Shown here in pieces: positions 11,283 through 17,054 of a stretch of DNA of 17,104 bases. This DNA comes from a virus, in the UHGV virus genome UHGV-0120250; one strand, 5' to 3'. The notes beneath the pieces are model-generated. The model saw nothing but the letters and a program-made list of their open reading frames with translations, was not told the origin of the DNA and searched no databases. Both the position numbers and the translations under genes were made by a program. The stretch's first letter is position 1; the number at the start of each line of letters is the position of its first letter.

Positions 11283-11699
11283 ATGAAAAAACTAACCTTT
11301 GAAATTCGATCTCCAGCACATCAGCAAAACGCTATTCACGCGGTACAGCAAATTCTTCCAGACCCAACCAAACCAATCGTAGTAACCATTCAGGAACGCA
11401 ACCGCAGCATTCGGCAAAATGCACGCCTTCACGCGATGCTATCTGAAATAAGTAAGAAGGCTACATATCATGGAAAAGCAAGAAATATTGAGTTTTGGAA
11501 GGGGTTATTCGTTTCTGGTTGGCAGATTGCAACCAACCAGCACCCTGAGATTATATCAGGGTTAGAAGGTGAGCTAATAAACATCAGAGAGAGTACGGCG
11601 ACTCTATCTGTAAAAAAAATATCCGAAATAATGGACTACATAGAAGCATATTGTGCCATGAACTCAATTCATCTTAGCGAATGGAGGGATTATGATTGA
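11283..11699 (+). CDS. ninB: NinB (Orf-family recombination mediator), 138 aa, C-terminally altered
   Basis: First 42 residues MKKLTFEIRSPAHQQNAIHAVQQILPDPTKPIVVTIQERNRS match lambda NinB as recalled; the rest is divergent but alignable; the track ORF starts 6 codons earlier. Confidence 0.85.
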   Translation: MKKLTFEIRSPAHQQNAIHAVQQILPDPTKPIVVTIQERNRSIRQNARLHAMLSEISKKATYHGKARNIEFWKGLFVSGWQIATNQHPEIISGLEGELINIRESTATLSVKKISEIMDYIEAYCAMNSIHLSEWRDYD

Positions 11700-12294
11700 G
11701 GTTTGGGTAGATATCGAAGGGATTCCATTTTATCAGGTTAGCAATAAAGGAAATTTCAGGTCTATTACGAGGGAAGTTACAGTAACATCAACCAGACAGA
11801 GGCCATATAAGAAAATAATTAATGGCACTAGCATAAAACCATTCAAGTGCAAGTCGACAGGATATCTTCAAATAAAGGTATACGGTAAGAAATACAGCGC
11901 CCACAGGATAGTTGCGAAAGCATTCTGTACAGGGTTCTGTGATGGCTTGGTAGTTAATCACAAAAATGGGCAAAGAGATGACAATAGGGCTGAAAACCTT
12001 GAATGGGTATCACATTCTGAAAACTCAAAGCACGGATATAAACAAAATGGAAGAATACCTATATCGCTAGGTAAATTTAGTGGTGATCATCCTGCCAGTA
12101 AAGCTGTTATTTCTACTGACATGAAAACTGGTGAGGAGGTTTATTATGAAGCAGCTATGGATGCTGTCAGAGAAGGATTTGATAGTTCGTCAATTAGTCG
12201 TTGCTGTAATGGCGAAAGCTCATATCACAAAGGAAGATTCTGGCGATTTGCAAATGAAACAATGAAAGCAAGATGGGGAGATCGGGCTGCATGA
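11692..12294 (+). CDS. HNH homing-type endonuclease with NUMOD4 motif, 200 aa
   Basis: N-terminal EVWVDIEGIPFYQVSNKGNFRSI (NUMOD4-like) and HNH core NHKNGQRDDNRAENLEWVSHSEN; start overlaps the ninB stop; the last 9 residues KARWGDRAA equal the lambda NinB C-terminus. Confidence 0.85.
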   Translation: MIEVWVDIEGIPFYQVSNKGNFRSITREVTVTSTRQRPYKKIINGTSIKPFKCKSTGYLQIKVYGKKYSAHRIVAKAFCTGFCDGLVVNHKNGQRDDNRAENLEWVSHSENSKHGYKQNGRIPISLGKFSGDHPASKAVISTDMKTGEEVYYEAAMDAVREGFDSSSISRCCNGESSYHKGRFWRFANETMKARWGDRAA

Positions 12295-12818
12295 CTATCA
12301 AATCAAATACGCCAGCACACGACAAGGACTGCTGGCAAACGCCGCTTTGGCTTTTTGATGCACTGGATATTGAGTTTGGATTCTGGCTGGATTCGGCAGC
12401 GAGCGACAAAAATGCTCTGTGTGCTCACTGGCTAACTGAGGCCGACGACGCGCTCAATTCTGAGTGGGTAAGCCACGGTGCAATCTGGAATAACCCACCG
12501 TACAGCAATATCAGGCCGTGGGTGGAAAAAGCCGCTGAGCAGTGCATACAACAGCGACAGACGGTAGTTATGCTTGTGCCAGAGGATATGTCAGTCGGAT
12601 GGTTCAGCAAGGCTCTGGAGAGTGTCGACGAAGTTCGCATTATCACTGATGGACGGATTAATTTTATCGAACCATCGACAGGGCTGGAGAAGAAGGGAAA
12701 CAGCAAAGGCTCCATGCTGCTGATTTGGCGACCGTTCATCAGTCCTCGACGGATGTTTACTACCGTATCCAAAGCGGCATTGATGGCGATCGGGCAGGGC
12801 GTCAGGAGGGCGGCATGA
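12291..12818 (+). CDS. phage DNA N6-adenine methyltransferase (Dam family), 175 aa
   Basis: Catalytic NPPY motif ([10 protein letters not shown]); ATGA overlap with the HNH stop; internal start of the track ORF 12273..12818. Confidence 0.85.
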
Positions 12819-12991
12819 GGCGACAGCGACGAAGTATCACCGACATAATCTGCGAAAACTGCAAATACCTTCCAACGAAACGCTCCAGAAATAAACGCAA
12901 GCCAATCCCAAAAGAATCTGACGTAAAAACCTTCAACTACACGGCTCACCTGTGGGATATCCGGTGGCTAAGACATCGTGCGAGGAAATGA
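12815..12991 (+). CDS. ninE: NinE, 58 aa
   Basis: [58 protein letters not shown] matches lambda NinE as recalled; ATGA overlap with the dam stop. Confidence 0.85.
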
Positions 12992-13395
12992 CAATGCTTT
13001 TAATTCAACCAGGATTTGGCCTTAGCATCAAAAAAGGGCACATGTTTGGCGAGAAAGAATCTCAACGAAAAATGGTGTCGATACAGTTGCCATTTATCAG
13101 TATTTATTGGCTAAACAGGGAGGCAACAAATTATTGGTATACATGCGCCAGAGCAGCATTTAACGACCCTGACTGGTTTGTGAAAAACCACCACGCAGTT
13201 CGTCAGGCAAAGAGAAAGGCCAATACGACATACATGAAGGCGTATCGAAAAGCATGGAAAGAACACCGCGATCGATACCAGCAAGATATGGAAAAGCTTG
13301 AATCAGAAAACATGGAATTAAGACGAAAGCTTGGTGAAGCAAAACGAGACATTGATGCTTACAAGCGACTTTTTAATGGTGAAAGCCATGCTTAG
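12988..13395 (+). CDS. hypothetical protein, about 135 aa, with a predicted C-terminal coiled coil
   Basis: ORF between ninE and ninF with start/stop overlaps at both ends (ATGA with ninE, ATGCTTAG with ninF); no recognisable family. Confidence 0.5.
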
Positions 13396-13564
13396 TCCAT
13401 CCCAATCTCTTCAATACCAGAAAGAAAGCGTCGAGCGGGCTTTAACGTGCGCTAACTGCGGTCAGAAGCTGCATGTGCTGGAAGTTCACGTGTGTGAGCA
13501 CTGCTGCGCAGAACTGATGAGCGATCCGAATAGCTCAATGTACGAGGAAGAAGACGATGGCTAA
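13388..13564 (+). CDS. ninF: NinF, 58 aa
   Basis: C-terminal [41 protein letters not shown] matches lambda NinF as recalled; internal start of the track ORF 13331..13564. Confidence 0.8.
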
Positions 13565-14168
13565 ACCAGCGCGAAGACGATGTAAAAACGATGAATGTCG
13601 GGAATGGTTTCACCCTGCATTCGCTAATCAGTGGTGGTGCTCTCCAGAGTGTGGAACCAAGATAGCACTCGAACGACGAAGTAAAGAACGCGAAAAAGCG
13701 GAAAAAGCAGCAGAGAAGAAACGACGACGAGAGGATCAGAAACAGAAAGATAAACTTAAGATTCGAAAACTCGCCTTAAAGCCCCGCAGTTACTGGATTA
13801 AACAAGCCCAACAAGCCGTAAACGCCTTCATCAGAGAAAGAGACCGCGACTTACCATGTATCTCGTGCGGAACGCTCACGTCTGCTCAGTGGGATGCCGG
13901 GCATTACCGGACAACTGCTGCGGCACCTCAACTCCGATTTGATGAACGCAATATTCACAAGCAATGCGTGGTGTGCAACCAGCACAAAAGCGGAAATCTC
14001 GTTCCGTATCGCGTCGAACTGATTAACCGCATCGGGCAGGAAGCAGTAGACGAAATCGAATCAAACCATAACCGCCATCGCTGGACTGTCGAAGAGTGCA
14101 GGACCATCAAGGCGGAGTATCAACAGAAACTTAAAAAACTGCGAAACAGCAGAAGTGAGGCTGCATGA
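13557..14168 (+). CDS. ninG: NinG (Rap) recombination-associated protein, 203 aa
   Basis: Size, position and Cys-rich N-terminus ([12 protein letters not shown]...WWCSPECG) are consistent with lambda NinG. Confidence 0.85.
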
Positions 14169-14836
14169 ATATCTACGAAAGAATTGATGGCAGCAAATAC
14201 CGAAATATTTGGGTAGTTGGCGATCTGCACGGATGCTACACGAACCTGATGAACAAACTGGATACGATTGGATTCGACAACAAAAAAGACCTGCTTATCT
14301 CGGTGGGCGATTTGGTTGATCGTGGTGCAGAGAACGTTGAATGCCTGGAATTAATCACATTCCCCTGGTTCAGAGCTGTACGTGGAAACCATGAGCAAAT
14401 GATGATTGATGGCTTATCAGAGCGTGGAAACGTCAATCACTGGCTGTTTAATGGCGGTGGCTGGTTCTTTAATCTCGATTACGACAAAGAAATTCTGGCT
14501 AAAGCTCTTGCCCATAAAGCAGATGAACTTCCGTTAATCATCGAACTGGTGAGTAAAGAAAAAAAATATGTCATCTGCCACGCCGATTATCCTTGTGACG
14601 AATACGAGTTTGGAAAGCCAGTTGATCATCAGCAGGTAATCTGGAACCGCGAACGAATCGGCAACTCACAAGACGGGATCGTGAAAGAAATCAAAGGCGC
14701 GGACACGTTCATCTTTGGTCATACGCCAGCAGTGAAACCACTCAAATTTGCCAACCAGATGTATATCGATACCGGCGCAGTGTTCTGCGGAAACCTCACA
14801 TTGATTCAGGTACAGGGAGAAGGCGCGTGGGCATAA
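14165..14836 (+). CDS. ninI: Ser/Thr protein phosphatase (lambda PPase, NinI-like), 223 aa
   Basis: Metallophosphatase motifs GDLHG, GDLVDRG, GNHE; size matches lambda phosphatase; ATGA overlap with the ninG stop. Confidence 0.9.
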
Positions 14837-15345
14837 GAGAACTAAACCTCACCAAAGAACAGCACGATTGGCTGAATGGATGGCTTGAACTGTGGGGCGC
14901 ATGGGTTTATTCAGGTCGTCTGGAAAAGCGCATGAGCAGCGTAATAGCGAAGTTCATGGAGAGCGTAGAGCCGGGAAGAGTTATGACAAGGCCAATGTGT
15001 AATGATGATGATGGAATGTTGATTTCTCAGGTCGTCGATTCCGTCATGTGCATTGACAAGAAAGCCTTTGGCATCCTCCTCAGCTACTACGCTCATGGTT
15101 CATCTAAGCGAGCAATTGCATCCTACTATCACGCGACTGCAAAGCCACGCAAGATGTGTGGACGTGGTGGCGAGGGATGGAGAAAACCTTCACTGGCAAC
15201 CTGTAGAAACGAAATTGACGACATCCTGAAAGCGTCGTTATTTGTTTTGTACCAGCCAATGCAAAATGCTTTCAAAATGCGTAAACGTGTTGAGAAAGTT
15301 AAGCATGTTGCTGTTAAAGGCCTTGACATACAATTATCCATTTAG
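14827..15345 (+). CDS. Q: late antiterminator Q, phage 21/933W type, 172 aa
   Basis: LELWGAWV...[12 protein letters not shown]... parallels 933W Q (LERWGAWA...RPQCCDDDAMII, from memory); position before the lysis genes; apparent GTG start overlapping the phosphatase stop. Confidence 0.75.
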
Positions 15346-15408
15346 CCATAATTAGAAGGTAAGCTGCCGTTAGTGACTCTTAAGTTGCAACGGTGGCTTT
15401 TTTTATTT

Positions 15409-15483
15409 GGGTCAGTCGTATAAAGGTCATTACGGAAGGCTGTTAACCTTCTTATCGTGGTTCGAGTCCACGCTGTCCCGCCA
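15409..15483 (+). tRNA. tRNA-Asn-like (anticodon GUU), CCA encoded; imperfect acceptor and D stems
   Basis: Cloverleaf folded by hand: acceptor gggtcag/ctgtccc (one T-T mismatch), anticodon stem gaagg/ccttc, loop CUGUUAA, T-arm cgtgg-TTCGAGT-ccacg, discriminator G, CCA. Confidence 0.5.
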
Positions 15484-15488
15484 AACAT

Positions 15489-15564
15489 GCTGTTTTAGCT
15501 CCAATGGTAGAGCGGTCGCCTTGTAAGCGAATGGGTAGCGGTTCAAGTCCGTTAAACAGCACCA
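15489..15564 (+). tRNA. tRNA-Thr (anticodon UGU), CCA encoded
   Basis: Cloverleaf by hand: perfect 7-bp acceptor gctgttt/aaacagc, D-arm gctc-caatggta-gagc, anticodon loop CUUGUAA, T-arm agcgg-TTCAAGT-ccgtt, discriminator A, CCA. Confidence 0.6.
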
Positions 15565-15651
15565 TAACTGAGCCGTAGCCACTGGCTATCCTGAATTCAT
15601 CAGTGATAGTTACGCTGCGGCCTTCTACACATGATCTTCGTGAAAGCGGGT

Positions 15652-15688
15652 GGCAGGAGGTCGCGCTAACAACCTCCTGCCGTTTTGC
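15652..15688 (+). terminator. hairpin plus T-tract upstream of S, conserved with lambda
   Basis: GGCAGGAGGT-cgcgctaaca-ACCTCCTGCC followed by GTTTTGCCC; the flanking sequence down to the S start matches the lambda region upstream of S as recalled. Confidence 0.5.
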
Positions 15689-15806
15689 CCGTGCATATCG
15701 GTCACGAACAAATCTGATTACTAAACACAGTAGCCTGGATTTGTTCTATCAGTAATCGACCTTATTCCTAAATAAATAGAGCAAATCCCCTTATTGGGGC
15801 TAAGAC

Positions 15807-16130
15807 ATGAAGATGCCAGAAAAACATGACCTGTTAGCCGCCATTCTCGCGGCAAAGGAACAAGGCATCGGGGCAATCCTTGCGTTTGCAATGGCGTACC
15901 TTCGCGGCAGATATAATGGCGGTGCGTTTACAAAAACAGTAATCGACGCAACGATGTGCGCCATTATCGCCTGGTTCATTCGTGACCTTCTCGACTTCGC
16001 CGGACTAAGTAGCAATCTCGCTTATATAACGAGCGTGTTCATCGGCTACATCGGTACTGACTCGATTGGTTCGCTTATCAAACGCTTCGCTGCTAAAAAA
16101 GCCGGAGTAGAAGATGGTGGAAATCAATAA
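15807..16130 (+). CDS. S: holin S (S107/S105 dual start), 107 aa
   Basis: [64 protein letters not shown]... is essentially lambda S, including the MKM dual-start motif. Confidence 0.95.
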
Positions 16131-16590
16131 TCAACGTAAGGCGTTCCTCGATATGCTGGCGTGGTCAGAGGGAACTGATAACGGACGTCAGAAAACCAGA
16201 AATCATGGTTATGACGTCATTGTTGGCGGAGAGCTATTCACTGATTACTCCGATCACCCTCGCAAACTTGTCACGCTAAACCCCAAACTCAAATCAACAG
16301 CCGCCGGACGCTACCAGCTTCTTTCCCGTTGGTGGGATGCCTACCGCAAGCAGCTTGGCCTGAAAGACTTCTCTCCGAAAAGCCAGGACGCTGTGGCACT
16401 GCAACAGATTAAAGAGCGTGGCGCTTTACCGATGATTGATCGCGGTGATATTCGTCAGGCTATCGACCGTTGCAGCAATATCTGGGCTTCACTGCCGGGC
16501 GCTGGTTATGGCCAGTTCGAGCATAAGGCTGACAGCCTGATTGCAAAATTCAAAGAAGCGGGCGGAACGGTCAGAGAGATTGAGGTATGA
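16114..16590 (+). CDS. R: endolysin R (lytic transglycosylase), 158 aa
   Basis: [49 protein letters not shown]... is near-identical to lambda R as recalled. Confidence 0.95.
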
Positions 16591-17054
16591 GCAGAGTAAC
16601 CGCGATTATCTCCGCTCTGGTTATCTGCATCATCGTTTGCCTGTCATGGGCTGTTAATCATTACCGTGATAACGCCATCGCCTACAAAGAGCAGCGCGAT
16701 AACAAGGCCAGTGAACTGGAGAAGGTGAACGCCACCATTACTGACATGCAGCAGCGCCAGCGTGATGCTGATGCACTCGATGCTAAATACACGAAGGAGT
16801 TAGCCGATGCAAAAGCTGAAAATGATGCTCTTCGGCGCAAGCTTGATAATGGTGGTCGGGTGCTCGTCAAAGGCAAGTGTCCAGTGTCAGCCGCAACCCA
16901 AACCGCCGGCGCCGCCAGCATGGGCGATGATGCCACCGTCGAACTCTCTGCAGTTGCTGGACGAAACGTTCTCGGTATCCGCTCCGGAATCATCAGCGAC
17001 CAAACAGCCCTGAGGGCGCTGCAGGAATACATCACCACGCAATGCCTGAAGTAA
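16587..17054 (+). CDS. Rz: i-spanin Rz, 155 aa
   Basis: N-terminal about 85 residues match lambda Rz ([31 protein letters not shown]...AKAENDALR); the C-terminal third is divergent. Confidence 0.9.
16807..17013 (+). CDS. Rz1: o-spanin Rz1 lipoprotein embedded in the +1 frame of Rz, 68 aa
   Basis: [21 protein letters not shown]... carries a lipobox (VVGC) and a Pro-rich body, as in lambda Rz1. Confidence 0.8.

Follow-up and report, generated by a model that had tools for sequence, protein, structure and literature searches.

We analyzed a 17,104-nucleotide stretch of the virus genome UHGV-0120250 (the window, in its full length), in which two adjacent tRNA genes are located between the gene for the late antiterminator Q and the lysis genes. 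ARAGORN, applied to the whole window, identified only these two tRNA genes, both on the plus strand: tRNA-Asn(GUU) at 15409-15483 (anticodon GTT, 75 nucleotides) and tRNA-Thr(UGU) at 15489-15564 (anticodon TGT, 76 nucleotides), each with an encoded CCA. Both are supported by Rfam family RF00005, with 55.3 bits (E = 9e-10) for tRNA-Asn and 61.2 bits (E = 2.3e-11) for tRNA-Thr at a gathering score of 29. Thus, the coordinates, anticodons, and CCA ends that a preliminary description of this locus had read from the sequence, and had proposed to check with tRNA prediction software, were reproduced exactly. The genes are tightly spaced, with four bases between the T-run of the upstream terminator and tRNA-Asn and five bases between the two tRNAs. 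The predicted layout, Q, late promoter pR', terminator tR', tRNA-Asn, and tRNA-Thr, is that of the known phage 21-type late leader, with the same order of elements as in phage 21 itself (OL657228).

The acceptor stem of tRNA-Asn contains a U4·U69 mismatch, seen in the preliminary description as T-T, next to six standard pairs, and the imperfect D stem noted in the same description ends in U13·U22. This tRNA also has C9, a four-nucleotide variable loop, A instead of U at D loop position 16, and an anticodon stem, GAAGG/CCUUC, that consists of five standard pairs. The anticodon arm of tRNA-Thr reads GUCGC-CUUGUAA-GCGAA, with G27·A43. In Escherichia coli, asparaginyl-tRNA synthetase (AsnRS) recognizes the anticodon G34 U35 U36 and the discriminator G73, and the identity set of threonyl-tRNA synthetase (ThrRS) comprises G1-C72, C2-G71, G35, and U36; all of these elements are present in tRNA-Asn and tRNA-Thr(UGU), respectively. 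Both genes probably encode functional tRNAs, which are predicted to be processed and charged.

Upstream of the tRNAs, the Q gene (14827-15345, plus strand, stop codon 15343-15345) encodes an antiterminator of the Q21 family (Pfam Phage_antitermQ, E = 1.5e-25), in agreement with the preliminary description; the protein matches the Q21 structures (PDB 6P18 and 6JNX, E ~1e-90) and shares 85% identity with phage 21 Q across 162 amino acids, most of the differences lying beyond about residue 94. The phage 21 record annotates the -35 and -10 elements of pR', the Q-binding element (QBE), the start site, the pause element, the terminator, and both tRNAs, and these features were transferred to window coordinates by alignment. 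The late promoter pR' (15323-15352, plus strand) comprises the -35 element TTGACA at 15323-15328, located within the 3' end of the Q gene, an 18-nucleotide spacer, and the -10 element CATAAT at 15347-15352 (AACACT in phage 21). It is the sole promoter-like site in 15200-15850, with a match at 11 of 12 positions, lines up with the pR' annotated in phage 21 and Sf6, and by homology initiates transcription near 15359. The preliminary description could not place pR'/qut with confidence in 15346-15408; homology does place it, yet it starts upstream of that interval. The window Q gene is 10 codons longer than that of phage 21 and hence overlaps pR', so that its last 23 bases cover the -35 element and most of a putative QBE-equivalent, AATTATCC ATTTAGCC (15332-15347, plus strand). 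This element, placed by position only, stands column for column opposite the phage 21 QBE, ATTGAGCA/AATGAGCA, and differs from it at 7 of 16 positions. The divergence runs in parallel with that of the C-terminal part of Q, as also pointed out for phage L (PMC8022706), which suggests that Q and the QBE-equivalent could form a distinct specificity pair, common to Sf6, BTP1, and ST64T.

The intrinsic terminator predicted to end the short late leader RNA, tR' (15361-15404, plus strand), consists of a hairpin at 15361-15397 and seven T at 15398-15404. The preliminary description had correctly noticed a T-run ahead of the first tRNA, which is the U-tract of tR', but had it start at 15397, which is a C. 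The predicted folding energy of tR' is -21.5 kcal/mol (z = -4.7; none of 200 shuffles folded equally well), the hairpin is identical base for base in all five aligned phages, phage 21 included, and the T-run is as long as that of phage 21, where the terminator is annotated (PMID 1704887). The call rests on this folding and on the identity to the annotated phage 21 terminator; a simple terminator scan of 15200-15850 reported no terminator, because its loop and stem rules do not fit the bulged hairpin. Between the tRNAs and the holin gene lies a second terminator-like hairpin, GGCAGGAGGU/ACCUCCUGCC (15652-15686, plus strand; stem 15652-15681, followed by GUUUUG), with -30.7 kcal/mol and z = -3.3, which is nearly identical in lambda and HK446; homology to lambda picks up again about three bases past the CCA of tRNA-Thr and includes this hairpin. 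The tRNA pair is therefore flanked by two terminator-like structures. In lambda, tandem terminators have been described downstream of pR'. The first protein gene of the late operon is the lambda-type holin gene S (15807-16130), an open reading frame with annotated homologues in Sf6 and E. coli prophages, followed by lambda-type R (16114-16590) and Rz (16587-17054), all on the plus strand, whereas phage 21 has a pinholin and a SAR endolysin downstream of its tRNAs.

Of 5,426 complete E. coli genomes, 347-369 (~6.5%) contain the 164-base tRNA pair with 95-100% identity, annotated as tRNA-Asn and tRNA-Thr, and the pair is also found in phage 21 (98.2% identity over the pair), Sf6, BTP1, and further phages; given this widespread, annotated occurrence, the pair is no chance match. 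The tRNA-Asn gene is identical in phage 21, Sf6, ST64T, JLK-2012, and HK446. Over the region 15300-15800, the window is 96-99.6% identical to Sf6, BTP1, SPN9CC, vB_SosS_Oslo, and ~280 complete E. coli genomes, the four phages being 96-97% identical to it, with point differences only. We further surveyed 136 loci sharing the D arm of tRNA-Asn (the search pattern covered positions 8-27). The sequence upstream of tRNA-Asn is a phage 21-type tR' in ~104, a lambda t6S-type terminator in ~17, and a Klebsiella type without a T-run in ~11 of these loci, counts that include single-base variants, and the remaining classes comprise three other terminator-like hairpins. In 123 loci, five or more consecutive T occur within 20 nucleotides upstream of tRNA-Asn, and this holds for at least five different upstream sequences. 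Most arrays are Asn-Thr (107), followed by Asn-Gly (9), Asn alone (6), Asn-Phe-Thr-Arg (5), and a few others; tRNA-Asn is thus the constant member of the cassette, and tRNA-Thr(UGU) its usual partner.

The modular behavior of the cassette is seen in HK446, where a lambda-type Q, pR', and the t6S terminator are directly followed by the same two tRNAs. Exactly at this site, lambda contains ~155 base pairs (bp) of unrelated DNA overlapping orf-64, and the junctions between the two phages are sharp, at the T-run and just past the CCA of tRNA-Thr. The 155 bp of lambda align poorly to the tRNAs and no remnants were seen in this alignment, which was not complemented by a tRNA search on lambda. The cassette is a discrete mosaic module of ~160 bp that is swapped behind different Q and terminator types. 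The second gene is the more variable one. The tRNA-Thr allele of the window (U5-A68, G26) is a minority allele found in 4 to 5 other loci. In ST64T, the second gene retains the acceptor stem and T arm of tRNA-Thr, with a different and shorter anticodon region; ARAGORN made no tRNA call on it, and its equivalent in phage L was read as tRNA-Leu(UAA) (PMC8022706). JLK-2012 and one IMG/VR variant carry tRNA-Thr genes with a phage-type 5' part and a 3' part resembling host thrU; one such hybrid has the complete host ACUGA/UCAGU arm, and the arm of JLK-2012 has two mismatches. These hybrid genes suggest recombination with host thrU. The JLK-2012 array continues, as that of P1 does, with tRNA-Gly(UCC) and tciA/tciB. 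Short contigs with the exact D arm of tRNA-Asn were also detected in two metagenome-assembled genomes labelled Segatella copri and Collinsella sp., and are most likely mis-binned enterobacterial prophage. A narrow literature search on the Asn/Thr tRNA pair in prophages gave no match.

The deviations from the canonical cloverleaf had led to the proposal, in the preliminary description, that tRNA-Asn is a decaying or specialized tRNA. We compared 18 distinct variants of this tRNA and found compensatory double changes at pairs 5:68, 6:67, 7:66, 28:42, and 29:41; the covariation score of 0.156, compared to 0.063 in shuffles, was reached in none of 500 shuffles, and the slid controls collapsed. At 4:69, in contrast, 16 of these variants form no pair, with U·U in 14 and U·C in 2, and a wobble pair occurs only in two singleton variants. 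U4·U69 is kept in three acceptor backgrounds, GGGUCAG/CUGUCCC, GGGUCGA/UCGUCCC, and GGGUAGG/CCUUCCC, which differ by compensatory changes in the pairs neighboring 4:69. Because compensatory changes occur elsewhere while 4:69 stays unpaired, the mismatch is a conserved feature of a tRNA under structural selection and a structural constant of tRNA-Asn. The invariance of the D stem, including U13·U22, is uninformative, as the search pattern itself fixed positions 8-27. Among homologues of tRNA-Thr, compensatory changes were likewise found at pairs 3:70, 5:68, and 6:67, with 5:68 being U-A in the window and G-C in phage 21. That tRNA-Asn is a decaying pseudogene, as U4·U69, U13·U22, C9, and the four-nucleotide variable loop might indicate, is highly improbable and was rejected on the strength of the covariation and of the U·U persisting across the three acceptor backgrounds; in addition, its Rfam score lies well over the gathering score, the gene is invariant in phages with differing flanks, and its AsnRS identity elements are intact. 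The other half of that proposal comes closer, the phage 21 allele of tRNA-Thr being nuclease-resistant (PMC12445682).

This resistance was described by Govande et al. (2025) in their work on P2 Old, the nuclease classically known for excluding lambda. They reported that P2 Old is lethal because it cleaves host tRNA-ThrU(UGU) in the anticodon stem, where it recognizes a paired CNG motif, that it cleaves host tRNA-Asn(GUU) too, at a slower rate, and that phage tRNA-Thr(UGU) genes rescue (PMC12445682). The tRNA-Thr of phage 21 (tRNA-Thr21) decodes ACA and protects in vivo; it 'also protected against P2-OLD', in Old+ Gam+ cells, and resists cleavage, which was attributed to its shorter anticodon stem plus C28U/G42A; for resistance to P2 Old, the CNG motif must be changed and the stem shortened at the same time (PMC12445682). 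A second nuclease, AriB of the PARIS system, cleaves between positions 40 and 41, with U39, position 41, and U16 as determinants, defined on tRNA-Lys (Belukhina et al.). Host tRNA-Lys(UUU) is its primary target, tRNA-ThrU a prime target, and tRNA-Asn(GUU) a secondary one, and the Lys, Thr, and Asn tRNAs of phage T5 jointly neutralize PARIS (Belukhina et al.).

We compared the anticodon arms of the window tRNAs with those of their host counterparts. Host thrU has a 5-bp stem, ACUGA/UCAGU, with CUG/CAG at nucleotides 28-30/40-42 and UAAUCA at 36-41, whereas tRNA-Thr of the window has a 4-bp stem, GUCGC/GCGAA (with G27·A43), UCG/CGA at 28-30/40-42, and UAAGCG at 36-41. The arm from 27 to 43 is identical to that of tRNA-Thr21, the sequence of which was taken from the phage 21 genome record, and the two tRNAs differ only at pair 5:68 (U-A for G-C) and nucleotide 26 (G in the window). 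Thus, tRNA-Thr has a known function in an allele whose differences from the window gene all lie outside the anticodon arm. This arm is retained in 21 of 25 distinct tRNA-Thr variants, and G27·A43 in nearly all; the window gene combines the UGU anticodon, the altered paired CNG motif (C28U/G42A), and the unpaired 27:43 of a rescue tRNA-Thr. For the Asn pair, host asnT has the 5-bp stem GCGGA/UCCGU, with CGG/CCG at 28-30/40-42 and UAAUCC at 36-41, and tRNA-Asn of the window has the 5-bp stem GAAGG/CCUUC, AAG/CUU, and UAACCU. Compared to the host tRNA, the phage tRNA-Asn has lost both CNG triplets as well as U39 of the AriB motif U36-A-A-U39, and position 41 is changed. From the loss of CNG and U39, we infer that tRNA-Asn could be a second arm of a counter-defense cassette.

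Our favored explanation, which we hold to be probable, is that the locus is a functional late-leader tRNA cassette that mainly replaces host tRNAs destroyed by anti-phage Toprim nucleases. As the tRNAs lie four bases past the U-tract of tR', the cassette would be transcribed mostly from pR', after Q has made RNA polymerase terminator-resistant, a dependence predicted from the arrangement, and host tRNA-processing enzymes would cut the tRNAs out of the leader. The tRNA-Thr(UGU) would then stand in for host tRNA-ThrU, the tRNA whose cleavage by P2 Old is lethal and which is also a prime target of AriB, and would resist cleavage because its anticodon stem has one pair fewer and no paired CNG motif; tRNA-Asn(GUU) most likely replaces host tRNA-Asn, a secondary target of both nucleases. 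In the lysogen, transcription may also pass tR' at a basal level, in which case the hairpin at 15652-15686 would halt it before the lysis genes. In the BTP1 transcriptome paper, both tRNA genes are treated as expressed loci, and the lytic operon starts directly after them. The window also encodes the anti-RecBCD protein Abc2, which we count in favor of counter-defense, as P2 Old senses events of the type in which RecBCD is disturbed (PMC12445682). A more far-reaching version, which we advance only tentatively, is that temperate lambdoid and P22-like phages use the whole cassette, beyond tRNA-Thr, as a dedicated counter-defense module, directed at Toprim tRNases of the OLD family (P2 Old and PARIS AriB). 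In this version, tRNA-Asn would be a resistant replacement for the secondary target, U4·U69 and A16 would aid the evasion of distal nuclease contacts, and the placement between tR' and the second hairpin would provide a basal supply in lysogens and a Q-boosted supply in lytic growth.

Several observations weigh against counter-defense. The anticodon stem of tRNA-Asn is not shortened but has the full 5 bp, and in tRNA-ThrU the motif change alone gave no protection from P2 Old (PMC12445682). Klebsiella-type variants of the same tRNA-Asn carry CAG/CUG, a paired CNG motif, so that CNG avoidance is not a constant of the family. Furthermore, the cassette contains no tRNA for Lys(UUU), the primary target of AriB, and thus cannot by itself neutralize the characterized PARIS system. 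Finally, there is a tension in timing: a Q-dependent tRNA arrives late, while the ACA-rich genes of the window are early, with 24.5 ACA codons per 1000 in the O-like gene, 19.0 in Erf, and 20.6 in Abc2. The conflict would be smaller if, in lysogens, a basal level of transcription passed tR' and was stopped at the second hairpin, ahead of S.

The classical view of phage tRNAs is codon supply, in which the pair would top up AAC/AAU and the rare ACA for abundant late proteins; it has been proposed for phage L, whose coat gene uses AAC for 24 of its 25 Asn codons (PMC8022706), and it is also in line with thrU being the sole UGU tRNA-Thr gene of E. coli K-12. The window has only three late genes, and codon usage was therefore assessed in the closest complete prophage, which is 98.2% identical over 12264-17049 and collinear with the window only from 12264 onward, against 36 K-12 genes. 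Relative to this small host sample, and bearing in mind that late regions in these phages are mosaic, AAC was slightly more common in the late genes (28.3 versus 23.9 per 1000, p = 0.086), but Asn codons overall were not enriched (44.3 versus 41.3 per 1000, p = 0.35) and ACA was depleted (6.6 versus 9.7 per 1000, odds ratio 0.67, p = 0.04). Enrichment of ACA was confined to early genes (14-16 per 1000), which are translated before a Q-dependent tRNA exists; the early genes of the window itself are likewise ACA-enriched. Moreover, the host already has four tRNA-Asn genes, and codon supply leaves the conserved, altered anticodon stems unexplained. We regard it as unlikely overall and, for the late genes, as unsupported.

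Less likely still is that decoding is irrelevant, the pair being either a neutral mosaic passenger that hitch-hikes with the late regulatory region or an entry site for RNase P or RNase E that separates the leader from the late mRNA. Such an explanation would agree with the sharp boundaries of the ~160-bp module and its exchange behind different Q and terminator types, with the unrelated DNA in the same place in lambda, and with the variability of the second tRNA, at times degraded or replaced (ST64T, JLK-2012, Asn-Gly, and Asn-Phe-Thr-Arg). However, compensatory changes maintain the anticodons, the identity elements, and the cloverleaf, none of which a mere processing site needs, and tRNA-Thr of phage 21 decodes and protects in vivo (PMC12445682). 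An integration-site (attP) role for the tRNAs was likewise rejected: nothing speaks in its favor, and the genes are complete and located in the late leader.

The window as a whole covers the early-right and lysis regions of a lambdoid/P22-like prophage, with NinG and a phosphatase encoded upstream of Q. Apart from the late region, it encodes the abortive-infection protein BstA (5745-6650, minus strand; PADLOC BstA, E = 2e-105), directly downstream of a cI-like repressor gene (6737-7450, minus strand), the same cI-bstA arrangement as described for prophage BTP1. Also present are Abc2 of the P22 type (1603-1896, minus strand; Pfam E = 6e-64), the recombinase Erf (2303-2938, minus strand), the superinfection exclusion protein SieB (4306-4887, plus strand), and, between the replication genes and the nin region, a 200-amino acid open reading frame (11692-12294, plus strand) that matches a homing-endonuclease model (PADLOC HEase, E = 8.5e-27).

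To conclude, the tRNA pair itself is already known: annotations of it exist for phage 21, Sf6, and BTP1 as well as for hundreds of E. coli genomes, and a 2025 publication showed what tRNA-Thr does in phage 21 (PMC12445682). What remains of interest is tRNA-Asn as a possible second anti-nuclease arm and the purpose of the conserved U4·U69. The anticodons of the cassette correspond to two of the three host tRNAs depleted by AriB, and both of these are P2 Old substrates; hence, the cassette, as a module common among prophages, may counter tRNases on two fronts. In that case, prophages that carry it should be able to grow lytically in strains with P2-like or PARIS-carrying elements.

Among known systems, Sf6 and the P22-like phages BTP1, SPN9CC, and vB_SosS_Oslo share with the window the promoter and QBE type, tR', both tRNAs, and the lambda-like hairpin; in Sf6, pR', qut, tR', tRNA-Asn, and tRNA-Thr are annotated as 'similar to phage 21'. 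The preliminary description had not expected these tRNA identities, referring to ileZ-argN-argO; however, Asn(GUU) and Thr(UGU) are the canonical phage 21 pair, and ileZ-argN-argO belongs to 933W-type phages. In 933W and other Stx phages, that cluster lies between Q and stx, is usually explained by codon supply, and likewise opens the late operon after Q, but its anticodons differ (reading rare Ile and Arg codons) and the sequences are unrelated. With the rescue tRNAs of T5 against PARIS, the window shares two of the three anticodons needed, and its substitutions affect the determinant positions (28/42, 39, 41, and 43) that are also changed in the rescue tRNAs of T5 and in the phage tRNA-Thr(UGU) genes that counter P2 Old; unlike T5, it represents a temperate lambdoid phage with two tRNAs only, no tRNA-Lys, a late, Q-dependent placement, and an unshortened tRNA-Asn stem. 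Adjacent Asn(GUU) and Thr(UGU) genes are also found in P1 (AF234173), an unrelated temperate coliphage, where they lie outside any late-operon leader. The P1 tRNA-Thr is ~80% identical to that of the window and, in contrast to it, retains CUG/CAG and a 5-bp stem, whereas the P1 tRNA-Asn differs strongly in sequence, has an acceptor stem with all pairs formed, and has likewise lost the CNG triplets (UUG/CAA). The occurrence of the same tandem in P1, with a different tRNA-Asn sequence, supports a functional link between the two anticodons.

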